From NCBI GenBank assembly GCA_003252295.1, contig QKEV01000017.1:100488-164487 (forward strand): DNA of 64,000 bases. The letters are read 5' to 3'. A program made the position numbers and the translations under genes. Below are positions 20,440 to 58,672 of this stretch, one piece after another; the first letter of the stretch is position 1, and the number at the start of each line of letters is the position of its first letter. Origin of the DNA: a bacterium. Lineage in GTDB: Bacteria > Patescibacteriota > Minisyncoccia > Phycocordibacterales > UBA12088. The notes below the pieces were generated by a model, which worked only from the letters and a program-made list of their open reading frames with translations, was not told the origin of the DNA and searched no databases.

Positions 20440-20446
20440 GAACTAT

Positions 20447-21109: not shown

Positions 21110-21115
21110 TGTAGT

Positions 21116-22942: not shown

Positions 22943-22944
22943 CC

Positions 22945-23565: not shown

Positions 23566-23617
23566 GTTATCCTCAACTCAGAAAAACAGAGCTAACCATA
23601 TACGGTATACTTACAGT

Positions 23618-31696: not shown

Positions 31697-31940
31697 TGTG
31701 GAGTAGTCTGCGTTTGTTCTGTGGAAAACATAGGGAAAGAACCAGTGAGTACTTGTGAAAACTTTTGTTTATAAGTGAGAATTGATTATACCGACTCTTC
31801 TTATAAACAAAGTAATCCACATTTTACAGAAGAAGTTCAAGTGAAAAATATAGTGTAAAGTAAAACTTTTTTTCACCTTTCCACATATCTACAGGACTAA
31901 TAATAGTAAAGTAAAAAAAATTAAAAAATAATTAACTACT
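31697..31940. promoter_or_regulatory. Candidate oriC: dnaA-dnaN intergenic region with DnaA boxes and an AT-rich DNA-unwinding-element-like tract
   Basis: tgtggaaaa (31720-31728), taatccaca (31813-31821), ctttccaca (31877-31885). Then aataatagtaaagtaaaaaaaattaaaaaataattaa (31899-31935), which is more than 90% AT. Confidence 0.5.
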
Positions 31941-43780: not shown

Positions 43781-44497
43781 ATGCTTTTTGTGATTCATGG
43801 TACTGATAACGTGAAGGTTGCAGACAAGACTGCTAAGTTGGTTGCATCATTGCTTTCAAAAAAACCTGACGCACAGGTATTCTACTTTGATGATGGAGAA
43901 CTGGAGGAAGCAGAGCTCGATGCACTCACTGGTGCACAAGGTTTGTTTGTAGAAAAGCATATTGTTGTTTTGAAGCAACCATTCATAAACGAACAAGCGA
44001 AAGAGGTGGTGCTCAAACGGTTACCTCTTTTCAAAGCGTCGCAAAACATCATTGTGCTTGCAGAAGGGAAACTGCTTGCTGCTGATAAGAAGAAGCTTGA
44101 GAAGCATGCTGAAAAAATTGAAGAGCATGAAGCGGTGAAGGAGAAAGCAGTCGCACCGTTCAATGTGTTTGCTCTTGGGGACGCACTTGGTGTGCGGGAT
44201 AAACGTGGCTTGTGGACGCTCTATGTTCAGGCCCTACGGGCAGGATTAGAAGTGCAGAGTGTACACGGCACCCTGCACTGGGCTGTGCGCTCCTTGCTTG
44301 CAGCACAACATGCCGCTGTGCCGGAGGAAGCAGGTCAGAAACCGTTCATGTACTCGAAGTATAAGCGGTACCTTGCAAACTACAGTACTCATGAGGTGCA
44401 AGAACTCTCGCATGACCTCATACGTCTCTACCATGATGCACGGAGGGGGAAGGGTGACCTCAAGGTTACCCTTGAACGATGGATACTCACACTGTAG
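43781..44497 (+). CDS. Hypothetical protein, possibly DNA polymerase III delta-subunit-like (HolA)
   Basis: MLFVIHGTDNVKVADKTAKLVASLL resembles the HolA N-terminus. Translationally coupled to polA. Confidence 0.3.
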   Translation: MLFVIHGTDNVKVADKTAKLVASLLSKKPDAQVFYFDDGELEEAELDALTGAQGLFVEKHIVVLKQPFINEQAKEVVLKRLPLFKASQNIIVLAEGKLLAADKKKLEKHAEKIEEHEAVKEKAVAPFNVFALGDALGVRDKRGLWTLYVQALRAGLEVQSVHGTLHWAVRSLLAAQHAAVPEEAGQKPFMYSKYKRYLANYSTHEVQELSHDLIRLYHDARRGKGDLKVTLERWILTL

Positions 44498-44875
44498 GTA
44501 TATAATTAATTACATACCTAATTATATACCTGCTCCTGTGTAAAAATCAAATCTTGACCCAGAAGGTGTTTTCGGGTTTTATAGTGTCAGACAGAGGGAT
44601 TTTTAATAACATAACCAGGGAGGAATGACTGTGGAAAAGGGGGATCCAGCAAAACTCATACCTATTGGCGATATCAAAGAATTACCTCATGGGGACAGGA
44701 TATTTCTGCATGAGCAGGGAGTGAGTCTAGGTTACTTTGAATCAGTAACCGATTCATTTGTTGTTCGGGGCGCTTGAAGTGAACAAGCACTTTACCGCGG
44801 TCGCGGTACGATACTGCGCTTATGGGATAAGATTCCTGGAACCGGTCTTGTGACCAATGCATAACACTCTGTGTA

Positions 44876-44908
44876 ACGCACTGCCTCATGGGCAGTGCGT
44901 ACTCTTTT
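44876..44908 (+). terminator. Rho-independent terminator
   Basis: acgcactgcc-tcat-gggcagtgcgt is a 10-bp stem followed by actcttttgcattgactttttg. Confidence 0.5.
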
Positions 44909-44990
44909 GCATTGACTTTTTGATATTTTACTGTTTTATGGTGTCAGGTTGAAACAGTGAAAGTGAATAATAAAAAGGGGAGGAAAAAGG

Positions 44991-45560
44991 ATGATTCAGG
45001 AAAAAGATGTACAGATTGTGCAAGATATTCTGGATACTGCGTCACAGCTGTTTGATACTGATTGGAGGAAGTTTGCTTCCGGGATAGTTTTGAATGATGG
45101 TAATGCGCGAAAGTATCAAGGTTTTTTTGCTTGCTGTGTTGAGGTACCACTCTTTGAAGGTGAAGAGTCAGAGAGGTTTTGCCTCGACCCGGTAGGTATG
45201 TTGCCGGACTTCTATGTGTCTACAAACACGCTCGATACCAAGTTTGATATCTTAACCTACAACCAGCTGTTTCTCTGCAGTATGGAAGGACGTGACCCGT
45301 TAAAAGGCCGTTGGGGTGGGGCAGTACGTTCTTACGTAAATCCCAGAAAAAGGTACGGAGGTACAGGGTTGCCGGAGACGGTAGATAACCTTACTATTGC
45401 TGGCAATATGTTTCGATACAAGGAGTTGACGCAAGCTGTGTATGAGTATGTAGTCGGATGGAAATCCCCTCATGTGCAGGCAGCATGTTTGTACGTTGGT
45501 ATGGAGCAAGAGGGTTACACTGCTCTCAGGAACTACATCGAACGTCTCACAATCAAGTAA
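44991..45560 (+). CDS. Hypothetical protein
   Basis: 189-aa ORF preceded by GGGGAGG. No recognisable motif. Confidence 0.45.
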   Translation: MIQEKDVQIVQDILDTASQLFDTDWRKFASGIVLNDGNARKYQGFFACCVEVPLFEGEESERFCLDPVGMLPDFYVSTNTLDTKFDILTYNQLFLCSMEGRDPLKGRWGGAVRSYVNPRKRYGGTGLPETVDNLTIAGNMFRYKELTQAVYEYVVGWKSPHVQAACLYVGMEQEGYTALRNYIERLTIK

Positions 45561-45581
45561 CTTTGTTGCCAGAGAGGTAAC

Positions 45582-45619
45582 AACACGCACTGTCTTTCGA
45601 TGGTGCGTGTTTTGTTTTT
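45582..45619 (+). terminator. Rho-independent terminator
   Basis: aacacgcac-(12-nt loop)-gtgcgtgtt followed by ttgttttt. Confidence 0.45.
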
Positions 45620-45650
45620 GAGAAGGAGGTGTGGTGATAGTATTTAAAAT

Positions 45651-46454
45651 ATGGAAGAACAAGAAAACAATGTAAACTCTCTGCAAACTGAAAAGCAAAA
45701 CGCTTTCAATACTGTGACACCACTATCAAGAACTTTGGCACTGGTGCTTTTTGTTGCACTGCCGTTTGTCGGGTTCTGGTTGGGGTATAGATTTGCACCA
45801 GAGAAGGTGGTGGAGATAGAAAAACTTACCGAGAAAACTGATGTTGTTCAAAATGAAGAAAATATAGTTACGTATGAAGAATGTGCTGGTATGGGTGGTG
45901 CAATTAATAATCTTACTAATGACTGTTGGGTAAATGGCGAGATAATTAAAACACCTTACAGCCGTAAACTTGATGAGAATTCTGATACACACAAAAATCT
46001 TTTGACGTTAGATGATGTTTTTGCTCTTATAGAGCTCGCACAAGTAACAGGTGATTATTCTTTATGTGAAAAAACCGAAACCCATCGAAAACGCTGTATA
46101 GCAGAAGTCGAGCTTCAACAAACAATACTACATAACTATGGTTGCAATGATAGTACCTCATGTAACAATCCAGAGTGTTACGCATATATGGGCTGTGGAG
46201 GTGGAGGTGGTGATGATGCTGTAGGGTGTTCAGTCCAAGAATACTGTGCTGTTGATCAATCTTGGTTGTGTGGAAAGACGGGTGGAGTGGGAGGAACAAA
46301 AGATGGTTTTAATTGTGTTTGTCCTGAGGGAAGCAATTTTATAAAAGGGTATGGTTGTGCTAAATGTAGTGATTTTGCACATGAAGAAACACGTTCATAT
46401 TGTGAAAATGGTGTTAGTTATTTCCAGTATCTATATGCAGAAGGAGGGGAGTAG
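45651..46454 (+). CDS. Membrane-anchored Cys/Gly-rich extracellular protein (hypothetical)
   Basis: N-terminal TM (LALVLFVALPFVGFWLGY). C-terminal ~110 aa with ~20 Cys and GGGGG. Confidence 0.45.
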   Translation: MEEQENNVNSLQTEKQNAFNTVTPLSRTLALVLFVALPFVGFWLGYRFAPEKVVEIEKLTEKTDVVQNEENIVTYEECAGMGGAINNLTNDCWVNGEIIKTPYSRKLDENSDTHKNLLTLDDVFALIELAQVTGDYSLCEKTETHRKRCIAEVELQQTILHNYGCNDSTSCNNPECYAYMGCGGGGGDDAVGCSVQEYCAVDQSWLCGKTGGVGGTKDGFNCVCPEGSNFIKGYGCAKCSDFAHEETRSYCENGVSYFQYLYAEGGE

Positions 46455-46462
46455 TTTCCAAT

Positions 46463-46513
46463 TCTAACCAATAGGGATTACTTACAACAACTGTCTGAGC
46501 AGATGCCGTTTGT
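46463..46513 (+). repeat. 93-bp intergenic repeat family, copy A (3' portion only)
   Basis: ttctaaccaatagggattacttacaacaactgtctgagcagatgccgtttgta matches the 3' half of copies C and D. Confidence 0.7.
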
Positions 46514-47310
46514 ACAGTTCCTACACAAAACAGAAATTTAATTGTGATATTATTTTATGTATGGTTAATAAATTCGTATTAAAAGCACCCTATTCACTAT
46601 ACTTGTTTTATGCAGTTTTACTTGGAGCACTTGCTGTGTTTCTTTTTTATGTTGGGGCAATGGAGGGGTTTTATGCTGTCGTGACTTTTGTAATATTTCT
46701 GTTTTTTTTTACAAGTAATGTACAAGTGAAGGTTACAGACACTACACTTGTAATACAAAATAAGTACCGCAGACAGAAAATAATACAATTCAATAACATT
46801 TCCTTGATCAGTCAACTTATGGGAGTGTCGTCACCAGACTATATTCCCATACAAGATGTACCTCAGGGTTTAGCTGTAACGTTAAAAAGTGGTGAAATTG
46901 TTACTATATCTCTCACAATGTACGACATAAAGGACATACATACATTTCTCTCATTACTATCTGGTTTATTACCAGAAAACAGTTTTGATGCAAATATTAA
47001 GAAGGATATTGTTTCAAAAACATACATAAAGGCAAGCAAAAGGGCTGTTTTTGGTATACTGGTGTCAGTGGTTGGGATTGTAGGTTTCTTTATAAGTGGT
47101 AATAAATTAGGTTATTTTGGGAGGAAGATTGTATTTAACTCACTAGATGATGTTATTGCCATAGTTGTTCCCTTGTCTTTTTTGGTTCTGTCGTTTTTTG
47201 GGATTGGTTACATGGTGGAAGGTAAAAAAACAGGAGTTAGACTTATAGAATATTTTCTACTCACTTTTGTCATTTTTGGTCTATTAGGGTGGATGTTTAT
47301 TTGGGATTAA
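46510..47310 (+). CDS. Polytopic membrane protein (hypothetical)
   Basis: 266 aa with at least 5 hydrophobic helices. Confidence 0.45.
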   Translation: MYSSYTKQKFNCDIILCMVNKFVLKAPYSLYLFYAVLLGALAVFLFYVGAMEGFYAVVTFVIFLFFFTSNVQVKVTDTTLVIQNKYRRQKIIQFNNISLISQLMGVSSPDYIPIQDVPQGLAVTLKSGEIVTISLTMYDIKDIHTFLSLLSGLLPENSFDANIKKDIVSKTYIKASKRAVFGILVSVVGIVGFFISGNKLGYFGRKIVFNSLDDVIAIVVPLSFLVLSFFGIGYMVEGKKTGVRLIEYFLLTFVIFGLLGWMFIWD

Positions 47311-47424
47311 TTTGTCCCATTTTCGAAGCCCTTTTGGAGTATGAAGCGGTACTTATAAAAAACTCTGAACACTCCAAACGCCAAAAGAACGCGGAGAATG
47401 GTGGGTTCATATTAAGCAATATAA

Positions 47425-47450
47425 TGTCCCCCGAGCAGGGCGTTATTATA
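47425..47450 (+). repeat. 93-bp repeat family, copy B, 5' segment
   Basis: tgtcccccgagcagggcgttattata is identical to the 5' end of copies C and D. Confidence 0.7.
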
Positions 47451-47525
47451 TGTAACCATATAAACTCCTCAACTCGAAAATACTCAAATCAAAAACTTGA
47501 GTATTTCTCTCGTCCTACGTCGTTT

Positions 47526-47594
47526 ATAACCCTTCTAACCAACAGAGATTACCTACAACAACTGAGTGAACAGATGTTGTTTATTAGGTTTTTG
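47526..47594 (+). repeat. 93-bp repeat family, copy B, 3' segment
   Basis: ataacccttctaaccaacagagattacctacaacaactgagtgaacagatgttgtttattaggtttttg. It is separated from the 5' segment by a 75-bp insertion that carries a 9-bp hairpin. Confidence 0.7.
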
Positions 47595-47630
47595 AATAAA
47601 GAAAGTATAAACAGGTGCTAAAATATAGCA

Positions 47631-48143
47631 ATGAAAGATCAAAGTCATTACAAAAATTTACCAAGAAAACGAGTTCATGTAGTAGCGCTTATTTTCAATG
47701 AAGATGGAAAAATTTTATTAGTAAAGCCAAGTTACAAAGATAAATGGTCACTTCCTGGAGGGTCAGTTGATTTAGATGAATCACCTCGTAATGGTTGTAT
47801 AAGAGAAGTTCAAGAGGAAACAGGTTTGGTTGTTACTGATGCAAAGTTTCTTTGTGTACAATATGTAACTGATACTGAAAAAGGAGATGCACTCTTCTTT
47901 ATGTTTGATTGTGGTGTTGTAAATAACAGTCAATTAATAAGTGTTTCAAAAGAAACTAAAGAGATAGAACAGTGTCAGTTTGTTGATATAGATGAAGTTG
48001 GGTCATATGTACCCGAAGGTGTCGCTACACGCATCACAGCAGGGCTTGATGCTAAAAGTGATACAAGTAAGGGGTATGTTGAGAGGAGATTTGTGAAAAG
48101 AATAGATGAAAAAACTTACACATCTGACATCTTTTCGTCATGA
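47631..48143 (+). CDS. NUDIX hydrolase
   Basis: Nudix box GGSVDLDESPRNGCIREVQEETGL. Confidence 0.7.
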   Translation: MKDQSHYKNLPRKRVHVVALIFNEDGKILLVKPSYKDKWSLPGGSVDLDESPRNGCIREVQEETGLVVTDAKFLCVQYVTDTEKGDALFFMFDCGVVNNSQLISVSKETKEIEQCQFVDIDEVGSYVPEGVATRITAGLDAKSDTSKGYVERRFVKRIDEKTYTSDIFSS

Positions 48144-48240
48144 AATGAGAAAATTCTATGAAATGGAAGTATGGTATTCTTATAGAAATACAAGCCTGAT
48201 TGAAATTTGTGTTTAGTGGTTTAATGCATATTTTGTAAAT

Positions 48241-48603
48241 ATGAGATTTTGTAAGAAAAGTATAATTATTTTGCTAGTATCTTCATTTATACTTGGTGTA
48301 ATTCATGAAAGAATACAGAATGAATTTTACATGACTGATGCCATTTTTATATTTTCATTATTTTCCCCTGGTATTATTACTGGTATTATTTTGCTTTTGC
48401 TAAATTATTTACCGATAAAGAAAAGAATGTATGTATTTTTTATATCAGAAATAATATTTGGATTGTCGTATTTTATTATTGGAATGTCTGGCGTTGGTAT
48501 GGACGGATATGGTGGGGAGATTCTTTTTTTAATGATGGCAGTTGCAATGATTGTTTATATTCCCTTTGCACTCTATATTTCAAAATCAATCAGAATAATT
48601 TAA
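48241..48603 (+). CDS. Small polytopic membrane protein (hypothetical)
   Basis: 120 aa with 3-4 hydrophobic helices. AT-rich. Confidence 0.35.
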   Translation: MRFCKKSIIILLVSSFILGVIHERIQNEFYMTDAIFIFSLFSPGIITGIILLLLNYLPIKKRMYVFFISEIIFGLSYFIIGMSGVGMDGYGGEILFLMMAVAMIVYIPFALYISKSIRII

Positions 48604-48643
48604 ATGATAAAAAACACCTTGATGGTATTTTTTATTTTTTCAT

Positions 48644-48736
48644 TGTCCCCCGAGCAGGGCGTTATTATAACCTTGTTAACTAATAGAAATTACCTACAAC
48701 AACTGAATGAACAGATGTTATTTGTGAGGTTTTTGG
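48644..48736 (+). repeat. 93-bp repeat family, copy C (full length)
   Basis: tgtcccccgagcagggcgttattataaccttgttaactaatagaaattacctacaacaactgaatgaacagatgttatttgtgaggtttttgg. It lies between convergent genes. Confidence 0.75.
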
Positions 48737-48757
48737 AAAGAAATATGAGAGTAAAAT

Positions 48758-49675
48758 CTATCTCATGAGTATCTCAAAGAAATCATGAACAAACTCCGCT
48801 TTTGCAATTTTTTTCACGACCTTCACATTGTTTCTTTTTTCACCCCATAGTCTTCTGTCAGCTACGGTCATGCCACGGGTAAGGTCACTGCTTGTTTCAA
48901 TTTGAATATCCATCGGTTGCGTTTTGTATGCTGAAGGGTTTATAAGGTAGTACGCTGCAAGAGGGTCATACATCAGCGCACCTGAAGTTTTTTCAAAAGT
49001 TTGTATACCTTGTATGTACGAACTCATCATACTTTTAATTGGTTTGTACAAGTTGGTTTTCTTAAGCACATCAAAATCTTGAAGTGTAAAAGATATGTCG
49101 TTGCATACATCAAGTGGAACAAGAATTTTTTTAACACTTGATGTAAAGACAATGTCCGCTGCTTCCGGATCGACAAAGATGTTAAATTCAGCAACCCTGT
49201 TTTTATTTCCAGGAACTTCGATTGCTCCACCCATCATCACAACTTGTTTAATGAGAGAAGGCAATTCTGGATCGAGTATGAACGCCTTGGCAACATTTGT
49301 TTGCGGTCCTATGGTAACCAAAGTAACCTCGTGCGGGTTTGTGCGAACAATTTCGATAATTTTCTCTGGTGCGTTATTTGACAGTGCTTCATGCTTTGTG
49401 ATTTTTGCACCATCAAGACCCTTTTCCCCATGCACATCTGCAAGCACAAGCTCTCTTTGAAGAGGTTTGTTTGCACCTGAGAAAATCGGTGTGATACTGT
49501 TGATCAGATCGAGGGTATACCTCGCATTATTGGTTGCGTTCTCAACAGTGCAGTTTCCTGCGACAGTTGTTATTCCTTTGATGTCAAACATGTCGGACTT
49601 TTCCAGTAGTAGTAGCGCGAGCATATCATCGTGTCCCGGGTCGGTGTCAATGATAACCTTAGGTTTATTTTTCAT
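48758..49675 (-). CDS. Inosine-uridine-preferring nucleoside hydrolase family protein
   Basis: N-terminal DTDPGHDD motif (VIIDTDPGHDDMLALLLL). 305 aa. Confidence 0.8.
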   Translation of the reverse strand: MKNKPKVIIDTDPGHDDMLALLLLEKSDMFDIKGITTVAGNCTVENATNNARYTLDLINSITPIFSGANKPLQRELVLADVHGEKGLDGAKITKHEALSNNAPEKIIEIVRTNPHEVTLVTIGPQTNVAKAFILDPELPSLIKQVVMMGGAIEVPGNKNRVAEFNIFVDPEAADIVFTSSVKKILVPLDVCNDISFTLQDFDVLKKTNLYKPIKSMMSSYIQGIQTFEKTSGALMYDPLAAYYLINPSAYKTQPMDIQIETSSDLTRGMTVADRRLWGEKRNNVKVVKKIAKAEFVHDFFEILMR

Positions 49676-50330
49676 GGTTTTTTAGATAGGTTGTTAATGT
49701 TTCTATTGATGGAATGGTTGGATAATTTGTATTACTTGTTGGATGTATATGCAACACATTCATGTTGCAGGCATGGGCAGGAAGTATATCTGTTTCTAAA
49801 GAGTCTCCCACCATTAAAATTTCAGATGGTTGAAGTTTTGTTTGCTCTATTATCTTTTTATACACATCAGACGTGCCACCTTTGGGCATCTTTTTACCTC
49901 TTTCCCAACCGATAAAGATGGAAAACAGTTGTGTTGCTACTTGAGCAGAGGACAGGAGCTTTTTTGCCTGAGATGTTGGACCGTCTGTTATGACCCCAAG
50001 AGAGTACCCTTTGAATTTGAGTGTGTTGAGTAGATTATGAACATGTGACATTTTCTGAATGAATGGATCAGTTTCAAGTGAGCAGAGAGCGTCATGCCAC
50101 ACAGTGTTTCCTTTGCTAAGTGATTCTAGGGCAACTTCACCCCTCCCATTGTATTGCTGTCTATATTCATCTGCGATGTTCTTTGCTTCACCCATAGTGA
50201 CACCGCGTAATGTACTGATAGTTTGCTCTAACAGTTTTGGATACTGCTTGTAGTACAAAGCAGCTTCATTTCCGTATATGAGTGTTTGATCTACATCAAA
50301 CAAGATCAATTTAATTTTTTTCATAGACAT
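49665..50330 (-). CDS. HAD-superfamily hydrolase
   Basis: Motif I DxDxT (LILFDVDQTLI) and a C-terminal motif (MVGDSLETD). Confidence 0.65.
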   Translation of the reverse strand: MSMKKIKLILFDVDQTLIYGNEAALYYKQYPKLLEQTISTLRGVTMGEAKNIADEYRQQYNGRGEVALESLSKGNTVWHDALCSLETDPFIQKMSHVHNLLNTLKFKGYSLGVITDGPTSQAKKLLSSAQVATQLFSIFIGWERGKKMPKGGTSDVYKKIIEQTKLQPSEILMVGDSLETDILPAHACNMNVLHIHPTSNTNYPTIPSIETLTTYLKNHEK

Positions 50331-50525
50331 ATTTTTGTAATAAAAAAACCCTGTGAGGGGTTCTAAGTTTGCTTTGCACTTGAGTGATAATTATTTACAC
50401 AACAAAGTAGCCCCCTCTTTTCTCAGAAGATGGTTGTTGTGCCAACTTGTTGTTACTACTGTTCTGTTGTCCATATTCAAAAAGTACCATCAAGTGGTAT
50501 GTTTGTCAAAATAGGAACTTTGAAT

Positions 50526-50759
50526 TCGAATCCTGTTCAGGTGTACGTCAAAAGCCCCTGTATGTGGGGCTTTCTCAGTGTCGTCACAAGTTGCTAAGTG
50601 TTTTGTTTGTTACAAATTACTAGGAATCTCACTGCTCGCTCCTTTCAGTCACTGCGCTCTGAGAACCCACGGTTCTCAGCGTTCGTTATCACTCACTGCT
50701 CTCCTACACGGGAGGACACCCAGTCCTCACGACCCCACCTCTGGTTCGAATCCTAGTGG
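50526..50759 (+). repeat. Repeat element R1 (~234 bp): structured, tRNA 3'-end-like terminus; paralogue of R2
   Basis: Aligns with 51541..51722. Shared blocks are tcgaatcctgttc, aaaagcccct..ggggcttt, ttactaggaatctcactgctcgct, cactgcgctc, tcctacac and ggttcgaatcctagtgg. It also contains covarying hairpins. Confidence 0.6.
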
Positions 50760-50966
50760 TAATCTATATATTTACTTGTCGTCACCCGTCACTAACTATA
50801 ATTGTTCACTTTGTTCCAATTCTAGTAAGTGCGCTTGACCACGGCTCGACTGTTTTGTGTCACAGTAAGTAGTGACACAAAACATGTCTCCGCCTCGGAC
50901 ACGAGCACGTAAGCAAAACTATTTGCTTACTAAAAAAGCCACACTAGTGTGTGACTTTTTTACTCA

Positions 50967-51059
50967 TGTCCCCCGAGCAGGGCGTTATTATAACCTTGTT
51001 GACTAACAGGGATTACTTACAACAACTGTCTGAGCAGATGCCGTTTGTGAGGTTTTTGG
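50967..51059 (+). repeat. 93-bp repeat family, copy D (full length)
   Basis: tgtcccccgagcagggcgttattataaccttgttgactaacagggattacttacaacaactgtctgagcagatgccgtttgtgaggtttttgg. Confidence 0.75.
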
Positions 51060-51097
51060 GGAGGGAAAAGTAAACCTTTTCATGTTAAAATTTTCGT

Positions 51098-51538
51098 ATG
51101 GATATTTATGAAACAATTGGAATAATAATTGCCCCCATCATCATAATAGTTTCTGTTCTACTTATCACTATGTGGAGCAGATTTTTTGGTAACAATCCCA
51201 AATGGAGTATAAGAGCTAAAAGCATGAAGAAGCTTGCTCAAAAACTTGGGTGTCAGTTTACTTTTGACACAAATACATTGTCTGAAAGGTTGTGGAAGAC
51301 GCCGAGAAAAATAAATGTAATAACTGGTGAATACAATGGTAAACAAATTGAAATTTACGATTACAACACTGTTACAAATTATTCATTTGCATTGGGACAG
51401 GATCCAAAACGATTTACCATCATTAATGGTGCGTACTATAAGCAAATAAAAGCGGAAACTATTGAAGAAATACTGAATGGTACATTGGACAAAGAACGAT
51501 TAAACAAACTAAGGAAAGACAATTCAAACGTTGAATAA
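51098..51538 (+). CDS. Hypothetical protein with an N-terminal TM helix
   Basis: 146 aa. IIAPIIIIVSVLLITMW. Confidence 0.4.
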   Translation: MDIYETIGIIIAPIIIIVSVLLITMWSRFFGNNPKWSIRAKSMKKLAQKLGCQFTFDTNTLSERLWKTPRKINVITGEYNGKQIEIYDYNTVTNYSFALGQDPKRFTIINGAYYKQIKAETIEEILNGTLDKERLNKLRKDNSNVE

Positions 51539-51540
51539 CA

Positions 51541-51722
51541 TCGAAATCCTGTTCGAGTGTATTTCAAAAGCCCCTAAGTATGGGGTTTTGGTGTTTACTA
51601 GGAATCTCACTGCTCGCTCGTTACACTCACTGCGCTCACGAAACCCACGGTTTCGTGTACTTCCTACACAGGGAACCAGCAGGTTCCCTGACACCCTCCG
51701 CTGTTCGAATCCTAGTGGGCGG
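51541..51722 (+). repeat. Repeat element R2 (~182 bp), paralogue of R1; its 3' 20 nt equal the tRNA-Lys T-loop/acceptor sequence in inverted orientation
   Basis: See R1. Hairpins cacgaaacc-cac-ggtttcgtg (51638-51657) and cagggaacc-agca-ggttccctg (51669-51690). Confidence 0.6.
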
Positions 51723-51763
51723 ACAGCCAAACAAAAAACAGCACTAAGTGCTGTTTCTGGCTG

Positions 51764-51836
51764 TCCGCCCACTAGGATTCGAACCTAGGACCCGCGGCTT
51801 AAAAGGCCGTTGCTCTACCAGCTGAGCTATGGGCGG
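51764..51836 (-). tRNA. tRNA-Lys (anticodon UUU)
   Basis: The reverse complement folds as a cloverleaf: acceptor CCGCCCA/TGGGCGG, D-arm GCTC-AGCTGGTA-GAGC, anticodon loop CTTTTAA, T-arm CTAGG-TTCGAAT-CCTAG, discriminator A. No encoded CCA. Confidence 0.85.
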
Positions 51837-52004
51837 ATAATGGTCATTGTACCTCCATCAGCAAAGCTATGGGTAGATGTACAAAAACGTAAAACGTTTG
51901 CTCAAGAATACTACGACAAATGACTGTTTTTGTCTACCAATGTATTGCGTGTAGATATAAGTAACGGCCTGTTCGAACTGAACAGACCGTTAAAAAACAT
52001 GAAC

Positions 52005-52379
52005 CTAGTGCTTCATGTACATGATGTACACTGTCTTTCTGTAGAAATCAAACTCCATATCGACTATCCTGTGCCCCTTATGAAATCTTCCAAGATAGTC
52101 ACTCGAGTTCATAAATCCATACTCATTGCGTGTATGCTTATCCCAAGCTGCAAACCTCACGATTCCATTTAAGGTATCGAATAAGCAAGTGTCAATGTAT
52201 AGGTTGTTTTGCTGTAGGGCAGTAACAACCTTCTCTGTCATGCGTGTTTTTTCCGGGACCATGTTAAGTGTCGCAGCGTGAAGCTCAGCAGCAAAGATTT
52301 TTCCCGGTGCAGAGAAGAGTAGCAGTGTCACAATGATAGTAAAAACAGGCCTATAGATCCCTTTTAAAGAATTTTCCAT
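52005..52379 (-). CDS. Small secreted hypothetical protein
   Basis: Signal peptide (IVTLLLFSAPGKIFAAEL). 124 aa. Confidence 0.4.
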   Translation of the reverse strand: MENSLKGIYRPVFTIIVTLLLFSAPGKIFAAELHAATLNMVPEKTRMTEKVVTALQQNNLYIDTCLFDTLNGIVRFAAWDKHTRNEYGFMNSSDYLGRFHKGHRIVDMEFDFYRKTVYIMYMKH

Positions 52380-52465
52380 GGTTTTCCTCCCCCAGAGTTT
52401 TTGTTGTATTACAGTGCTAAACTGGTGGCATAATACAACTAAAATATTTTATGTCAACAAAATAC

Positions 52466-52493
52466 TTGACAAATATTTTATATATGCTATACT
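52466..52493 (+). promoter_or_regulatory. Sigma70-type promoter candidate for the 52618 gene
   Basis: TTGACA (52466-52471), a 16-nt spacer, TATACT (52488-52493). AGGAGG lies 7 nt before the ATG. Confidence 0.45.
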
Positions 52494-52617
52494 GCCCATC
52501 AGTTTTGCTCAGAGTTAGTAATTCTGTATTTGTTATTTGTAAGAAACAAAACGTAAATTTGTATCAGAAGGGGGAGATAACTCCCACGGTCATCCAAACG
52601 ACTATAGGAGGAATAGG

Positions 52618-53613
52618 ATGAAAAAGGTTATCGTAACTGCACTCGGAATCTTTGCACTTGCAACAACTGCCGTGTCTTCATTTGCCGCTGCACCCAAAAT
52701 TAATTGGGGTGGCGCAAGTGCAACTGGGCAGTACATTGAGTTTGCTAAAGAGGGTTGCAGTGCATTGGGAAAAATCTTTGACTGCGTTCCAGTGGTAACG
52801 GAAGGTTCCGGCGACAACAAAGATCAGCTCATTGCTGGTACTTTGGATATTGCATTGGGTATGGGTGGTCTTGCTCAGAAATGGGCTGCTAATGACCCTG
52901 AATTCCAGGCGAACGTCGAAGTGGTACGCTATATCGCTGGCGAACCTCTCTTTGCTTATGGCAAACCAGAGGTTGTCGCAGCGCTTGTCAACTGGGAAGG
53001 CGTAAAGCAGAATGGTTTCTTGGTCAGCTTCGGCGCGCCGAGTGAGCAATCCGGCGATTACCTGACCCTGAAAGAACTCCAGAAAGGAGAAGGGAACGGT
53101 CTTGCAGAAGCAACGGTAACACCTATGGGTAATCGAGATGCGCAGATCAAAGCGGTACTGAACGATGAAGTTCAACTTGGTTTTGCAGCGCAGTTTGCAA
53201 ATCCCAGTAACGACTTCTTCACCGCTATTGCCGATAATAATCTCGAGATCATGCCGGTCATTGATACCGACCTCGCCCTTACTTCAGACCTCTATGGTGT
53301 GCGTGAAGTTCAGGTGGAGAATGTTTCCCTGAAGCGCCGGTCTTTAGGTAAGAAGGTGGAAACGATGTACGTGCCTATTGCCATCATGGCTCGGAAGGCA
53401 TCTACGTACGACAATCCTCGTGACCAGAAGATCCAGCAGGCAGTTATCGACCGTATTAAAAATATGGACGAAGCAGACCTGTTGCCGAAAGTTGGTTGGC
53501 TGACAGATTTTATGAACAAGTCAGCGAAGTACAGTGCCGACAAACTCGAAACCATGGGTAAAGCCATGAAGGAAGCGGCAAAAGAGGCAAAAGCCGCCGC
53601 GCTCGGCAATTAA
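52618..53613 (+). CDS. Secreted TAXI-family (TRAP-type) solute-binding protein-like, orphan
   Basis: Signal peptide, then WGGASATGQYIEFAKEGCSALGK and VVTEGSGDNKDQLIAGTLDIALGMGG, which resemble TAXI/PBP2 motifs. Locally higher GC than the neighbours. Confidence 0.45.
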   Translation: MKKVIVTALGIFALATTAVSSFAAAPKINWGGASATGQYIEFAKEGCSALGKIFDCVPVVTEGSGDNKDQLIAGTLDIALGMGGLAQKWAANDPEFQANVEVVRYIAGEPLFAYGKPEVVAALVNWEGVKQNGFLVSFGAPSEQSGDYLTLKELQKGEGNGLAEATVTPMGNRDAQIKAVLNDEVQLGFAAQFANPSNDFFTAIADNNLEIMPVIDTDLALTSDLYGVREVQVENVSLKRRSLGKKVETMYVPIAIMARKASTYDNPRDQKIQQAVIDRIKNMDEADLLPKVGWLTDFMNKSAKYSADKLETMGKAMKEAAKEAKAAALGN

Positions 53614-53637
53614 CATGTTTACGTTTGTTTAGTACCT

Positions 53638-53669
53638 TACACCCCCATATAGCAATATATGGGGGTGTA
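53638..53669 (+). terminator. Strong hairpin downstream of the TAXI-like gene (terminator candidate, weak T-tract)
   Basis: tacacccccatata-gcaa-tatatgggggtgta is a perfect 14-bp stem. Confidence 0.4.
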
Positions 53670-53676
53670 TTCGTAC

Positions 53677-53705
53677 TTGACAAAAAAGTATATCTATGAT
53701 ATACT
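53677..53705 (+). promoter_or_regulatory. Sigma70-type promoter candidate for the 53809 gene
   Basis: TTGACA (53677-53682), a 17-nt spacer, TATACT (53700-53705). Near-identical in architecture to the 52466 promoter. Confidence 0.45.
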
Positions 53706-53808
53706 TCCGTGCAGTATTTTGGGGTTGCCTGCTGATGTCAGCAGGTATTCCAAACAGTTGTTTGAAAGATAATCAATCAATGTTGTAAAACTTTCACAGG
53801 AGGGGAAT

Positions 53809-54366
53809 ATGGCACGAACAAACGTAGTGACTGTGGGTCAAGCTAAAGGTAATTTTTTTCTTGGATTGCTGTATACGATTTTCATCGTAAACTGGCGAAT
53901 CACAGCTGGATTGCTTTTTGCACCACTTTTGGCGAACCCGTCCGGGATTTCCTACTACCACTTCACGATCGCAAATGGCTTCTTGACCTGGGACAAGCTC
54001 CTGAGTCTGGATGTGCCGGCAATTCTTGTGCTGATTCTTGGAATCGGAATGGTGTTCTTCTCAGCACGACTTACCGTGAAGGCATGGAAAGTACTGAATG
54101 GTTTTTTTGATAAACTGTTCGCTTTCGTCTGGGTGGCTGCCACTATCGTACTCATCGTTGCACTCTTCAAAGAGCAATTGCTTACGATGACCAACTTGTG
54201 GAACTGGTCATACGTTGCCTTCATGGGGCTTGCAGTCTTTAATATTTATGCCGTCGCTACCAAGCGGGCGGACTTCAAAGACTTCAAGTACCGCGGTATG
54301 GAGAATGTTCATGATGATATGAACGAACCTCATGCTGACGATGACGATGATCACGGTCATCATTGA
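53809..54366 (+). CDS. Polytopic membrane protein with an Asp/His-rich C-terminus (possible metal-binding tail)
   Basis: 4 hydrophobic helices. C-terminal HDDMNEPHADDDDDHGHH. Confidence 0.45.
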   Translation: MARTNVVTVGQAKGNFFLGLLYTIFIVNWRITAGLLFAPLLANPSGISYYHFTIANGFLTWDKLLSLDVPAILVLILGIGMVFFSARLTVKAWKVLNGFFDKLFAFVWVAATIVLIVALFKEQLLTMTNLWNWSYVAFMGLAVFNIYAVATKRADFKDFKYRGMENVHDDMNEPHADDDDDHGHH

Positions 54367-54806
54367 TGTAGTCTAATGAGTAGGGCTGCTGCAACTGCAG
54401 TAGCCCTATGCTTCTTTATAGGAGATTGCGATGAGTATCAAAAGAAAATGGTATCTGTTTAAAAAATGGCAGGTTGGCCGTCTTTTGGTTCACCTCGAGT
54501 ATCCTTTTGAAAAGGGTGTGCTGGTTGGGTTGCTGAGTGGTTCTTACAGACTGCTCTTGCGTCCGGTTAGAACAGTGCGTCATGCTTTCAGGGTGTACTA
54601 TGTGTTTTTCAAAATCCTTATGAGGAGGTTGGTATGGGATCGAAAAAATCTTTGTCTGTAAAGACAATTCTTGTTCGTACTTTTGTCTACCCGCTCTGTG
54701 GCTTGCTTGTAATGCTTGCCATTCTTGTGCTGGTAGCAGTACAGACCGGTTGGCAAACATCAGTAGATGGTGCGCATACCTCTGAACATATGTTCATTAA
54801 ACGTTA

Positions 54807-56072
54807 ATGTCGGAGGTGGTGATGGAAGAACTACTTGCTTTTTCAAGGCTTGAAGTGTACTCCATTGCGATAGTCATCCTTTTGTTGGGACCAGGTGTTT
54901 TTACGGCAACGCTCAACGCAATCACCTCAATGAAGTGGTTGTGCAAACTAGGTCTTTTGTGCTCAGAGTACCTCATTGTTTTCAATGTAGTGTATCTCAT
55001 GTTCGAAGACCTTAGTGTACTCGAGGGTGAGCCGGTAGTGTACGCGTATACTGTAGCATCAAGTTGCCTGGCTTCGCTTGCTTGGGATCGTCTAAGTATT
55101 AAGCAGAAGCGCTGGTGGAAAGGTGCATCAATACTGCTCGCTGTTGTAATTGGCACTATTATTGCTGTGCAGCTCTACTACGACATCAACTTTTTCATGG
55201 CAGCTGGACTGCTCTGGAGAAGGGTGTTTGTGAGGTTGTTTGCAAGAATGAGGATGCGCGCCTTGTCTATGTTGAAAGGTGTTCTGGAACTACTGAGGTT
55301 TTTCTGGAAGATTGCCCTTGAATTCTTTGCAACAATGTCGTGGGTGACGTTTCGTCGAATACTCGGACGTTCGAGTTTGCAGGTTGGTATCCGATGGACC
55401 AAGAAGATACTCATACTATCGGTGATCTACGTGTTTGTTGCACGTAAAGCCCGTAAGCTGTTCATGAATCAAAAAATTCAGCAGCTCAAAGAGGTGATAG
55501 GTCGCAACAAGGAACGCGCGCAAAATTTGTACAAGAACTTAAAGTTCAGGTACAAGTTAGCGTTCTGTATCGGAGCCACAATAGCTACGCTGTTTGTTGG
55601 CGACGCGTATGAGTTTTTCTACCCATTCTTGCCGAAGGCGTTCATGGTAAAGTTGATCGGTCTTGTGAAGGTTATTGGTGCAGGTATCACGTTTCTTCTT
55701 AAGAAACTTGGTATTCATGGGCTGATCGACCAGACAACAAAAAAAGTATCGCAAAAAATCCTTGGACGTATGTCTGAGGACGCAAGGCAAAAGTGGGAGA
55801 GGTACAAGAAGTGGAGACTTGGTCGTATGGTCATACATATTGATCGTTGGATTATGATTCTCGACAGACCTGCCAGAAAGAAAGCTCGAGACATGCGTAT
55901 TGCTGCCGCCGAGAAGATATTCTGTGCGAAAAAAACAGTACAGGACGTCACTGAAGCAGTCGGGAGTACGGTACGTAAGGTTATTCCAATAGTTATACCG
56001 ACACCGAAGGTTGCACTCGATGGTCTCATGAAAACACAACGGATGATTATCAAAAAGATAAAAAATAGGTAA
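54807..56072 (+). CDS. Highly basic polytopic membrane protein (hypothetical)
   Basis: 421 aa, K/R-rich with several hydrophobic helices. The C-terminal segment shares a KKWxxGRxxxH motif with the small ORF 54431..54661. Confidence 0.4.
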   Translation: MSEVVMEELLAFSRLEVYSIAIVILLLGPGVFTATLNAITSMKWLCKLGLLCSEYLIVFNVVYLMFEDLSVLEGEPVVYAYTVASSCLASLAWDRLSIKQKRWWKGASILLAVVIGTIIAVQLYYDINFFMAAGLLWRRVFVRLFARMRMRALSMLKGVLELLRFFWKIALEFFATMSWVTFRRILGRSSLQVGIRWTKKILILSVIYVFVARKARKLFMNQKIQQLKEVIGRNKERAQNLYKNLKFRYKLAFCIGATIATLFVGDAYEFFYPFLPKAFMVKLIGLVKVIGAGITFLLKKLGIHGLIDQTTKKVSQKILGRMSEDARQKWERYKKWRLGRMVIHIDRWIMILDRPARKKARDMRIAAAEKIFCAKKTVQDVTEAVGSTVRKVIPIVIPTPKVALDGLMKTQRMIIKKIKNR

Positions 56073-56199
56073 GCGCTCCTGCCCAATAAGCAGGGCGCTT
56101 TTACTTTGACAAAAGGTTAAATTTATGCTAAAATATTAACAGCAGAATTTAGGTTTTTTTCAGATGAATAACTAAAAACAAATAAGGAGGTGATGCGTT

Positions 56200-57411
56200 T
56201 TGTTTCGACAAAACTTGCAACAGCTACTAAGGAGGTATGTGAAGGAGTTGAGGGACAAGATGTTCCTTATTATCAAAGCGTTTTTCTACAAGACGCCAGG
56301 GCGACTCATATTTATGTGTGTTATGCGAGACTTCCTCGATGAGCTTAAAGAGCGCCCATCATGGAAAATCGAACTATACATAACCATGGGACACTTTTTT
56401 GTGAGCTGGTTTTTTATGTGGGTGTTTGAACCCGCAACAAACCCAATCAAAAACGTGGATACGTTCTGGTGGTTCTACCTTGTGACAGCATCTACGCTTG
56501 GGTATGGAGATGTCTTCCCGGTAACACTGGGTGGTCGCATCGACACGATAGGTATCCTTGTCTTTGGTGCCGTTCTCTTGATCGCTTTCATGATCCAACT
56601 TGGAAGCATTGGTTTTAAGATCGTCAAAAAGATATGGAGTGGGGAAATGGGTTCAAATTTCACGAACCACCTCCTCTTGATCGGAGAGAGAGGTGAGAGG
56701 ACAAAAACGATCACAACAGGACTCTTGAACGACAAGAACATGGCACACCATGGAATCGTGTTGTGTTTCGATGGAACAAAAACTGAACGAAACCCGATAC
56801 CAACCATTGGACTCAATTTGATTCATGGTGTAAAAGCCAAGAATGGGTTCGATGAGGAGTCGTGGATAGCAAGGGCATGCATCGACAAAGCATGGAGAGT
56901 TGGTATTGATGTCAAAGATGACAACAGTGCACTCACCCTATGCTTACTGGTTAAAAAACTAAACCCGCAAGCGCATATCGTTGTTGCGCTTCAGTCCATG
57001 GATAAGTTTGCCTCAAAAATATCCGAACTTGTTGGGGAGGACATTGAATGTGTCCCTGACGGTCTCTCAGACTGGTTTGTGAGAGCATTGCTCAACAAAT
57101 GGTCAACGGATGTGCTGCAAAGCTTGAGTAAACCGATTGGACAACGGCTACACAACATACACATCCCCGACAACTTCGGCACGTGTATGTTCAATGTGGT
57201 TGAAGATTGCTTTGAAGAGCAGGGTGCACAAATACTCTCTGTATCGGATGGCAAAAGGCGTGGAATCATGCAGGTAAACCCTGGAGATGACTTTGTGGTG
57301 AGTGGTGGCATGGTAATCAGCTACCTTCACGAAGAGCGCTTAGATGACGTTGTGTACTGGGACGAGCTTGTCCAAGGAGATAAACACGTAAATATGGAGG
57401 GGGTAGAATGA
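56200..57411 (+). CDS. Potassium channel family protein (pore-loop channel with a C-terminal cytoplasmic domain)
   Basis: Selectivity filter TLGYGD (VTASTLGYGDVFPVTLGG) flanked by TM helices. The TTG start sits 9 nt after AAGGAGG. Confidence 0.65.
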   Translation: MFRQNLQQLLRRYVKELRDKMFLIIKAFFYKTPGRLIFMCVMRDFLDELKERPSWKIELYITMGHFFVSWFFMWVFEPATNPIKNVDTFWWFYLVTASTLGYGDVFPVTLGGRIDTIGILVFGAVLLIAFMIQLGSIGFKIVKKIWSGEMGSNFTNHLLLIGERGERTKTITTGLLNDKNMAHHGIVLCFDGTKTERNPIPTIGLNLIHGVKAKNGFDEESWIARACIDKAWRVGIDVKDDNSALTLCLLVKKLNPQAHIVVALQSMDKFASKISELVGEDIECVPDGLSDWFVRALLNKWSTDVLQSLSKPIGQRLHNIHIPDNFGTCMFNVVEDCFEEQGAQILSVSDGKRRGIMQVNPGDDFVVSGGMVISYLHEERLDDVVYWDELVQGDKHVNMEGVE

Positions 57412-58616
57412 ATCCGGAAAGGTTTGAAATTCAAGGAAAACATATCGCATGGTGGTTGCTGGGATTGGTGTTTGTAGGTGTCACGCTCTTGTGTTACAAG
57501 GCGTGGACATACGTAGAACCATTCTCTCTCCCCGTTTTCACTGCCGCACTATTTGCTTGTTTTTTGAATAAATGGTGCACGGTACTTACCGTTAAACTGA
57601 AATGTTCAAGAGTGCTCGCTTCGGCGACCGTAACTCTCGGTCTTCTGTTCACATTCGTGCTGCCGTTTTCAATCTCTTCTTTCTCTATAAGCTCTCAGGC
57701 AATAGAGGGGGTTCATGTGATTATGGACGAGGAACGACGAGCCGAAGGGAAGGATATGCTGGTTGAGAAGATGCATAGCTTTGTGGAGGAATATCCATGG
57801 AGCAAGACCGTGATGAACAAGGTCATTGATACTGTTGACGCGGTGGATACCGATCAGTCAGTACTGGTCGGCTACCTGAGCTTCAATGGGATTGTTAAGG
57901 GAGTTGGCGGAAAAGTGACCTCGATGCTTACGTCATTGTTATCGAGAGGTCTCGGCTTTTTTGGGCAGATGTTCATTACGCATGTGGCACTGTTTATTTT
58001 TCTGTTGAAGGGTGAAGAGTACATGCTGCGTATTGTTGGCGCACTCCCTTTTGACAAGGAAAGAAAACGTGGAGCACTTAGCGATGTCTCTCGTGGTATA
58101 ACAGCATTGTTTAACAGCATGTTGGTTACCGGACTGGTGCAAGGTGGAGTAGGGGCGCTCGTTATTGGTGTGTACTGCATTATGTATGCTCACATCAGCA
58201 TCCTACTTTTTGTTTTTATTGCGTTTTTGATGGTGTTCTTTTCCGCAATACCGCTCGCAGGTGCGTCGATAGGTGTTATTACCTATGCAGTGATAGCGCT
58301 AATCCATAAGCACTACGTTTTTGCAGGACTAATGGTAGTCACAGCCGCATTTATTGCCATATCGGACAACTACATCAAACCAAAAATCATGGGGAGTGCA
58401 GTAGAGGTAAAGCCAGTACTACTTCTACTCTTCATGCTTGGTGGGGTTGCTGTCGATGGACCCATCGGAGTGCTTTCCGGACCGTTCCTCATCATCTTGC
58501 TTACCATTATTTGGCGAGAGTTTGGTGATAAGTTTGATGAATTCAAACAGGATCTAAAGAACAGGATGAAGACTCCTGAGGTTGTTGTGGGAATGCCGGA
58601 GAAACGTATCAACTGA
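57408..58616 (+). CDS. Polytopic membrane transporter, AI-2E/PerM-family-like
   Basis: 402 aa with ~8 hydrophobic helices. 4-nt overlap with the channel gene. Confidence 0.4.
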   Translation: MNPERFEIQGKHIAWWLLGLVFVGVTLLCYKAWTYVEPFSLPVFTAALFACFLNKWCTVLTVKLKCSRVLASATVTLGLLFTFVLPFSISSFSISSQAIEGVHVIMDEERRAEGKDMLVEKMHSFVEEYPWSKTVMNKVIDTVDAVDTDQSVLVGYLSFNGIVKGVGGKVTSMLTSLLSRGLGFFGQMFITHVALFIFLLKGEEYMLRIVGALPFDKERKRGALSDVSRGITALFNSMLVTGLVQGGVGALVIGVYCIMYAHISILLFVFIAFLMVFFSAIPLAGASIGVITYAVIALIHKHYVFAGLMVVTAAFIAISDNYIKPKIMGSAVEVKPVLLLLFMLGGVAVDGPIGVLSGPFLIILLTIIWREFGDKFDEFKQDLKNRMKTPEVVVGMPEKRIN

Positions 58617-58633
58617 AAACATATCGATCTTTT

Positions 58634-58672
58634 TAACAGGGTGTCCTTACGAGGACACCCTGTTTATGTTTT
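58634..58672. terminator. Bidirectional Rho-independent terminator
   Basis: aacagggtgtcc-ttacga-ggacaccctgtt is a perfect 12-bp stem followed by tatgttttt. Confidence 0.6.

Follow-up and report, generated by a model that had tools for sequence, protein, structure and literature searches.

In the tycheposons of Prochlorococcus, serial integration at a tRNA gene pushes older elements into an island (10.1101/2020.12.28.424599). Here we analyse a locus that invites comparison with this system, in a 64,000-nt stretch of DNA (hereafter the window; contig QKEV01000017.1 of assembly GCA_003252295.1, positions 100,488 to 164,487, forward strand) from a bacterium of the Patescibacteriota (Phycocordibacterales, UBA12088). 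Copies of a ~94-bp repeat, termed R, form an array downstream of the 3' end of a tRNA-Lys gene, where a tRNA-linked island is expected. Like a tycheposon locus, it belongs to a streamlined genome and has a variable island 3' of a tRNA gene, tandem blocks of unrelated cargo each bounded by a short repeat possibly related to the tRNA end, and scattered partial tRNA copies together with degenerate remnants. Unlike tycheposons, it contains no integrase or integrase fragment in the 64 kb of the window; its repeat is a predicted translated small open reading frame (ORF), alike to the tRNA end at 11–12 of 15 nt, rather than a partial tRNA; its modules measure 0.8–2.3 kb; and its other copies of the tRNA-Lys end are inverted rather than direct.

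Other multi-copy systems offer further points of comparison. Integron attC arrays likewise alternate short genes, most of them on one strand, with a recurring element of ~60–140 bp; the present locus departs from them in lacking IntI, in that R is conserved in sequence and has no conserved hairpin, and in that R lies 5' of its genes and encodes a peptide. Orphan CdiA-CT/Rhs modules share with it a conserved coding stub of ~30 codons ahead of variable content, as well as mosaicism of that stub, yet no full-length parent gene was found among 5.8e9 proteins or in this genome, and here the stub is followed by a stop codon and separate genes, with no toxin domain. REP/BIME sequences and miniature inverted-repeat transposable elements (MITEs) are, like R, short multi-copy intergenic elements; R differs from them in having neither terminal inverted repeats nor a stable fold, and its one MITE-like trait is a 78-bp insertion (a hairpin and a 3-nt duplication) in a single copy, R2.

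To our knowledge, how ultra-small, host-dependent bacteria with few classical mobile elements gain and shuffle accessory genes is poorly understood. We find that the unusual feature of this tRNA-linked flexible island is its repeat, a selected micro-gene with frozen first nucleotides, and we tentatively propose that accessory modules headed by R accumulated serially beside the 3' end of tRNA-Lys.

R is the beginning of a small coding gene

The R module of ~94 bp is the first 31 codons of a gene of 35–41 codons, which we call orfR. An earlier note on this DNA, made from the sequence alone, had described four copies of an intergenic repeat; a repeat finder recovered all four where that note placed them, all on the forward strand (DNA matches: R1, partial, 46467–46513; R2, 47424–47450 and 47526–47594; R3, 48643–48736; R4, 50966–51059). 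The 23-nt core TACAACAACTGNNTGARCAGATG occurs four times in the window and in none of 100 shuffles, and neither core-motif nor profile searches found a fifth copy within the window.

Homology between the copies sets in exactly at ATG (R2, R4) or TTG (R3), and a single one of the six frames is open in all copies, the other five holding stops in every full-length copy (R2–R4). The peptide in this frame, MSPEQGVIITLLTNRDYLQQLSEQM.FVRFL, has the consensus (M/L)SPEQGVIITLLTNR(D/N)YLQQL(S/N)EQM(P/L)F(V/I)(R/Q)FL. Among R2, R3 and R4 the ratio of nonsynonymous to synonymous divergence (dN/dS) is 0.15–0.19 at a proportion of synonymous differences (pS) of 0.28–0.41, and pS against R1 reaches 0.7–0.9; a Leu-Leu pair is spelled CTT CTA, TTG TTA, TTG TTG or CTT CTC, and Phe-Leu is TTC CTA or TTT TTG. 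Across R1 to R5 (the last a member from another genome, see below), variable columns are distributed 14/5/14 over codon positions 1, 2 and 3, and the mean BLOSUM62 score is 3.66 against nulls of 1.9 and 2.7, a value reached by 0 of 5000 column shuffles in either control. Judged by these substitutions, codons 10–31 evolve as a protein does: changes are synonymous or conservative, and second positions are spared. The ORFs end 4–10 codons past codon 31, in C-terminal tails that are unrelated to one another.

The first 12–26 nt of R (ATGTCCCCCGAG..RTTATTATAA) show zero change, synonymous change included, and hence are subject to a constraint at the DNA or RNA level on top of the coding constraint. 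The invariant block GTCCCCCGAGCAGGGCGTTATTATAA spans 26 nt and is complete in R3 and R4 (Table 1); R2 carries it minus the final A (47426–47450). As far as sequence comparison can tell, R is thus a lineage-restricted micro-gene family under two constraints, one on the peptide and one on the 5' nucleotides.

A start codon, ATG or TTG, is present in five of seven members (R2, R3, R4 and the two called proteins P0061 and P0063 described below), and in R3, R4, R5 and the contig of P0063 (L016) the ORF begins 2–10 nt after a hairpin and T-tract. From a six-sequence alignment, AlphaFold2 models the peptide as a two-helix hairpin (residues 3–13 and 15–40) with a mean predicted local distance difference test score (pLDDT) of 88. 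This model does not support the ribbon-helix-helix fold that had been suspected by eye from the sequence, and a Foldseek search with it gave no match, the protein being too small. We also considered whether R extends the upstream gene at its C-terminus or the downstream gene at its N-terminus; stop codons intervene, and the in-frame coincidences (R1 and R3 upstream, R2 and R4 downstream) are at chance level. Nor are the copies template and variable repeats of a diversity-generating retroelement, as their differences are not limited to adenines and no reverse transcriptase is present.

The individual copies differ in state. R1 lacks codons 1–9, and with them the 5' block and the start codon, and sets in directly 3' of the TAG stop of the 267-aa gene. 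Its codon-level homology extends to 46523, beyond the DNA similarity, and its FVQFL is spelled GTA CAG TTC CTA, the other copies reading GTG AGG TTT TTG. R1 is a mosaic, R2-like in its 5' codons and 96% identical to R4 in its middle, and stretches of 27–47 nt are identical between R copies. The extra bases of R2 (47451–47528) comprise a 75-nt insert with its own hairpin and a 3-nt ATA duplication. The truncation of R1 and the insertion in R2 both coincide with the palindrome GTTATTATAAC at the 3' edge of the block, and the 78 bp in R2 may represent a miniature insertion at this palindrome. The hairpin within the insert is a perfect one of 10 bp (AAATACTCAA/TTGAGTATTT), and the insert occurs once in the window. 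A repeat search revealed neither terminal inverted repeats nor a target-site duplication around the R copies.

R3 lies 40 nt 3' of the stop of the 120-aa gene and is convergent with the nucleoside hydrolase gene, and R4 starts 4 nt past the T-tract of a terminator (terminator 1). The earlier description, in which most copies directly follow one ORF and precede the start codon of the next, is true of R1 and R2 and in part of R3, and fails for R4, which is preceded by a non-coding element and that terminator. The next forward-strand ATG follows 36–39 nt past codon 31 in R1, R2 and R4; R3 meets the convergent gene.

Members of the family in other genomes

The repeat is not confined to this locus, since three further members were found: R5, P0063 and P0061. 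R5 came from a four-peptide profile run over six-frame translations of the loci fetched for synteny, and lies in the holA-to-SpoU interval of another genus (contig L013, 12273–12365; profile E 3.9e-14, DNA E 2.6e-15), whose holA is 57% identical to that of the window. All 26 nt of the invariant block are identical between R5 and the window, and the following 66 nt differ at 24 positions (36%); these diverged 66 nt encode NLLSSREYVQQVAQQVDFIKFL, in which nearly every replacement is conservative. The limits of the unit are the same 94 bp.

An exhaustive HMMER search of 1.84 billion representative proteins yielded the other two. P0063 is a called protein of 41 aa, MSPEYNIIISLFSNRSYMEKLAHQLSFINMLRRADEVAIAH, and the DNA of its contig still reads ATGTCCCCCGAG......ATTATTATAA, the rest having diverged; there orfR starts two bases past a hairpin and T-tract and is solitary, 230 nt upstream of a gene with its own promoter. 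P0061, a called protein of 58 aa, contains MSPEHNVIITLLSNREYVQQIAQQVAFIKFLREGEKVDLV. It is encoded on an 11,646-bp JGI contig, and the holA homologue P0023 is likewise on an 11,646-bp contig; the two probably share the same neighbourhood. The R peptide had no other match among 5.8 billion proteins, a word-index search and the 40-aa R4 ORF as query included, and no family in Pfam, PHROGs or the PDB sequences. Strict peptide patterns gave no R match on JGI metagenome contigs, and a holA scan of metagenomes was also empty. A scan of genome contigs with a DNA motif from the second half of R returned four single matches in unrelated phyla; the flanks of L002, the one match for which they were read, bear no relation to R, and chance probably accounts for the other three as well.

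The variable interval and the R4 junction

Synteny was anchored on homologues of the holA-like gene of the window (43781–44497), the relatives' holA being 50–69% identical. The common backbone has RuvB, PilB, TsaE, PolA and HolA on one side of the variable interval and, on the other, a minus-strand 127-aa gene followed by SpoU, Mur ligase and RuvA. The suspicion that the array is accessory is borne out: GC content is 33–36% at 46–49 kb against ~44% around it, the repeat separates unrelated gene blocks, and the cargo of the holA-to-SpoU interval is quite different in each of the relatives examined. This interval is about 13–14 kb in the window, 0.5 kb with tRNA-Lys only in L010, and 1.6 kb in L007, where tRNA-Lys is accompanied by two small genes, one of them a homologue of the window's g189 (44991–45560). 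It reaches 7 kb in L012, with beta-lactamase-like (bla2), MazG-like and MmeI-type genes, and >6 kb in L013, with a PKD protein and a beta-lactamase-like gene; in L015 it carries a Na/Ca exchanger. The earlier note had the accessory segment end at tRNA-Lys. Synteny instead places the variable region at ~45.6–58.67 kb with tRNA-Lys inside it, and since tRNA-Lys lies within the interval, on either strand, in every genome where the interval was recovered, it is not the border of the island.

At R4 the array can be aligned with its relatives. In L010 and L012, a conserved non-coding element, S, and terminator 1 are followed by ...ACTC-GTGTCCGCCCACTAGG or ...AACGT-TGTCCGCCCAGAAGG, which is the minus-strand tRNA-Lys gene at its 3' end. 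The window has, after S and terminator 1, the sequence ...ACTC-ATGTCCCCCGAGCAGG, which is the start of R4, at the position of the tRNA-Lys 3' end of L010 and L012. Since terminator 1 adjoins R4 here and tRNA-Lys in the relatives, R4, its cargo gene g146, the X box, element B and terminator 2 (Table 1) separate the old tRNA terminator from the present tRNA-Lys. In fixed register, the R start TGTCCCCCGAGCAGG agrees with the tRNA-Lys ends TGTCCGCCCACTAGG and TGTCCGCCCAGAAGG at 11 and 12 of 15 positions, respectively. R as a decayed tRNA-Lys pseudogene was tried and dropped, as there was no significant alignment and no tRNA hit. The order R, cargo, X box with terminator, structured element, terminator and tRNA-Lys recurs in L013 with other cargo, and the same order from R to structured element is found twice in tandem in the window (R3...A-S and R4...B).

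In the window, each R heads a different low-GC block of accessory genes on the 3' side of tRNA-Lys. We envision that such modules would be added successively at the tRNA-Lys 3' end through a short box common to the tRNA end (GGACA; TGTCC on the plus strand) and the R start, each newcomer displacing the older ones away from the tRNA. R would then supply the element's half of the junction, with orfR, the module's first gene, overlapping it, and would plausibly deserve the label of recombination site that the earlier note considered for it. The recombinase would act in trans or have been lost, and homologous exchange between R copies would subsequently reshuffle or delete blocks. The proposal thus entails presumed site-specific insertion, in a presumed order and by a presumed trans-acting enzyme, together with a putative function of the orfR peptide.

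Table 1. Coordinates of features in and around the R array (window positions)
Feature	Position	Strand	Description
Flexible region	45612..58671	.	left, holA and g189; right, 127-aa gene and SpoU; backbone resumes at 58672
267-aa protein	45651..46454	+	N-terminal transmembrane segment, Cys-rich, no family match; first gene past the part common with L007
R1	46455..46541	+	partial copy to codon 31, 5-codon tail, stop; hidden Markov model (HMM) E 1.4e-19
Cargo after R1	46561..47310	+	249-aa multi-pass membrane protein, no family match
R2	47424..47621	+	ATG ORF: codons 1–9, 78 in-frame bases, codons 10–31, 8-codon tail
Cargo after R2	47631..48603	+	Nudix hydrolase, 47631–48143; 120-aa membrane protein, 48241–48603
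R3	48643..48768	+	TTG-initiated ORF, 41 codons
Cargo after R3 (inverted)	48758..50330	-	RihC-like nucleoside hydrolase, 48758–49675; HAD phosphatase, 49665–50330
X box TCGAATCCTGTTCAGGTGTA and GC hairpin terminator	50525..50575	+	second copy 51541–51590; L013 14259–14312, z 9.5
Element A	50617..50759	+	two ends repeat the tRNA-Lys 3' T-stem/T-loop end as an inverted repeat
Element S and terminator 1	50760..50965	+	conserved in L010 and L012
R4	50966..51073	+	ATG-initiated ORF, 35 codons
Invariant 26-nt block GTCCCCCGAGCAGGGCGTTATTATAA (in R4)	50968..50993	+	also 48645–48670 (R3); L013 12275–12300 identical
Cargo after R4 (g146)	51098..51538	+	146-aa protein, N-terminal transmembrane segment, no family match
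Element B (paralogue of A)	51595..51729	+	final 27 nt match the tRNA-Lys 3' end perfectly in inverted orientation
Terminator 2	51730..51757	.	bidirectional hairpin between B and tRNA-Lys
tRNA-Lys (UUU)	51763..51836	-	R array on its 3' side

Structured elements beside tRNA-Lys

Two element families that the first reading of this DNA had overlooked, A/B and S, show real structural covariation. A and B have relatives in C (L007 8265–8400, minus strand) and D (L008 11683–11791), giving a family of 105–145 nt. In each of the four, the first bases are complementary to the tRNA-Lys 3' end (CCGCCCA-CTAGG-AAT in C) and the last bases are that 3' end itself (TTCGAAT-CCTAG-TGGGCGG), forming an acceptor and T-stem 'minihelix'. 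An internal hairpin covaries from CTGAGAACC/GGTTCTCAG in A to CACGAAACC/GGTTTCGTG in B, compensatory changes affect 8 of 35 predicted pairs across A, B and C, and elements of this type fold better than their shuffles (z -3.4 and -4.75); Rfam gave no match to the family. B, its terminator and tRNA-Lys are colinear with L007 (82.5% over 257 nt), and B and C are convergent with tRNA-Lys across the common terminator. The perfect 27-nt inverted repeat 51703–51729/51758–51784 consists of the tRNA-Lys 3' end and 5 trailing bases, and L007 has the same inverted duplication of the tRNA end across the terminator (22/23 nt).

S is a non-coding sequence of ~140 nt with counterparts in L010 (10760–10950) and L012 (15025–15190), genomes with 58–60% holA identity. 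It is located between an A-type element and the tRNA-Lys terminator, carries compensatory changes in 9 of 36 predicted pairs, and is a candidate for a new structured RNA or DNA element. The X box, followed by a CCCC/GGGG terminator, precedes both A and B and is conserved between genera, X-A and X-B being local duplicates. In sequence, the box (TCGAA(T/C)CCT..AGGTGT) resembles the T-loop and acceptor 3' end of another tRNA.

The tRNA-Lys of this lineage starts with C (a C1-G72 pair in the Rfam alignment) instead of the usual G1. Degenerate tRNA-Lys halves adjoin the intact gene in the window (51853–51878), in L010 (10951–11045) and in L012 (15330–15440); that of L010 is a pseudo-tRNA-Lys of 95 nt with a 3' half preserved as far as the anticodon loop. 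Such halves look like scars of earlier recombination at tRNA-Lys. Inside C (L007 8312–8380, minus strand), one frame reads LTARSYLSTPTKPLGFVYFLHRE and has L-T-x-R-x-Y-L-x8-F-V-x-F-L-x-R-E in common with the R peptide. Homology of R to A/B/C, raised by a tblastn E of 0.023, was rejected, as an HMM of seven sequences gave E 0.095, DNA alignment lent no support, and B is frameshifted relative to C; from the sequences, the resemblance would be either chance or a very old link.

Weighing the alternative explanations

The earlier note had also entertained a terminator or small RNA (sRNA) module. R2 and R3 do have an imperfect hairpin with a T-run, and the spacing to the next gene is a constant 36–39 nt in R1, R2 and R4. 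It is nevertheless highly improbable that R is a cis-regulatory RNA, an sRNA or an intrinsic terminator: six R copies fold at the level of their shuffles (z -1.6 to +0.2), Rfam returned nothing for R, even up to E 1, and substitutions track codons rather than helices. The inverted repeat acaacaactg/cagatgttgt, which was said to be in each copy, is present at 9/10 in R2 and degenerate in R1 and R4 (CAGATGCCGT), where the hairpin is broken and uncompensated; homologues in other genomes (R5, L016) lack it, with zero compensatory changes. Least credible of all is the reading of R as the attC site of an integron-type cassette array. Repeats that lie between short genes and share one orientation would fit such an array, but neither intI nor attI nor Pc is present, two of the cargo genes run in the opposite direction, and R is a translated sequence to judge from its substitution pattern. 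Moreover, the ends of R are not complementary and form no bulged hairpin, no R''/R' core sites are found, and it is the sequence and not the structure that is conserved, the opposite of attC. With no conserved structure and no integrase in the window, the earlier view that this is not a canonical integron stands.

Two further readings accept orfR as a gene or a duplicated segment and dispense with site-specific insertion. In the main rival to our proposal, R could be a multi-copy gene for a helical, perhaps regulatory, protein of ~40 aa, locally duplicated with its neighbours, whose 5' invariance serves translation initiation or mRNA regulation (e.g. a start lacking a Shine-Dalgarno sequence after a U-tract); we regard this as possible, if rather doubtful. 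Strong purifying selection on the peptide, the start codon retained in five of seven members, the calling of two members as genes (41 and 58 aa), the confident prediction of two helices (pLDDT 88), the solitary ORF 230 nt before a gene with its own promoter in L016 and the failure to find a recombinase in the window all agree with it. Against this, 26/26 nt are identical at 57% holA identity where the adjoining codons are 36% diverged, which exceeds the usual need of an initiation signal; no Shine-Dalgarno sequence is present, and no promoter space is left between the upstream terminator and the start codon; the breakpoints of truncation and insertion cluster at the block edge; and the C-terminal tails are unrelated and of unequal length, as if the unit ended at codon 31. 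Alternatively, the R copies might be anchors for homologous, not site-specific, replacement of cargo, or relics of segmental duplication of a small gene once beside tRNA-Lys, the array having grown through duplication and then gene insertion and decay. We consider this unlikely, given that copies in one genome differ at pS 0.3–0.9 yet retain peptide and block, that identical 94-bp limits recur in a different genus, and that the cargo between copies is unrelated and compositionally foreign. It would account for the mosaic R1 and the identical stretches of 27–47 nt, which show homologous exchange, for the local duplicates X-A and X-B, for the pseudogene-like appearance of R1 and R5, and for the degenerate tRNA-Lys half-copies nearby as a local duplication history.

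Serial accumulation of R-headed modules, the reading we tentatively prefer, faces a number of contrary observations. R resembles the tRNA-Lys end over a short stretch, a resemblance that is not significant as a free local alignment, and the exact copies of the tRNA-Lys end (50744, 51703) are inverted relative to the tRNA, not direct. R4 is the sole junction that can be compared with relatives, and the R1 and R2 units are without a right end of the X/A type. A-S-terminator 1 and B-terminator 2-tRNA-Lys are ancestral in relatives; A-S and B being ancestral partners of tRNA-Lys, 'module 3' may not be one unit. Among the relatives (50–69% holA identity) we found neither an empty site nor an excised circle, nor any single R unit polymorphic for presence or absence. 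As the earlier note had stated for integrases and transposases, no tyrosine or serine recombinase, transposase or remnant was detected by Pfam among the ORFs of at least 90 aa scanned in the window, and R was found on no viral contig and in no phage or plasmid record, tblastn searches included. Finally, R5 has TAG at the position of the start codon and R1 has no start, and no Shine-Dalgarno-like sequence precedes any R copy, so that present-day translation is predicted only.

A bolder and improbable extension would join R to the structured elements: R and the A/B/C elements could be the two attachment-site arms of integrase-less mini-cassettes in small-genome bacteria of the candidate phyla radiation (CPR) type, moved by a trans-acting recombinase. 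The terminal stem of A/B/C would rebuild a duplex copy of the tRNA-Lys 3' end, and the cassettes would possibly move as folded single strands; the crossover box would overlap the start of the 40-aa gene and so couple the integration state to orfR expression. The attP of CTX phage, which mimics dif, and integron attC sites are parallels for such an arrangement.

Neighbouring features

Relatives have a further small variable slot, between polA and holA, which is empty in the window. It is occupied by an Avd/23S-IVP-like gene in L011 (9592–9984), by a helix-turn-helix gene in L008 (9720–9995) and also in L009, and by a 38-aa ORF in L014 (1825–1941). In three genomes the holA stop is immediately followed by a perfect AT-rich palindrome, GGTATATAATTA...TAATTATATACC (window 44498–44533), and the short-read contigs L006, L011 and L014 all terminate inside it. 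Strain heterogeneity had been considered for these three contigs, which end at most 25 nt from the holA stop; the AT-rich palindrome explains them. Further upstream, a low-GC block (36–42%) at 20005–26337 carries PrgI-like and VirB4/TraG-type P-loop ATPase genes, is reminiscent of type IV secretion and precedes dnaA and dnaN (30338–33041) by a few kb.

Implications

Taken together, the locus offers a searchable marker for module boundaries, namely the 26-nt invariant block (search pattern GTCCCCCGAG-N7-TTATTATAA) combined with the peptide profile. It exposes an unannotated family of small proteins ('MSPE...' peptides), whose genes are almost always missed by gene callers, and reveals two conserved, structured elements associated with tRNA-Lys. 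Should the junction model be true, this would be a tRNA-anchored cassette system that operates without a resident integrase; if it is false, R would still be an 'intergenic repeat' that is really a selected micro-gene.

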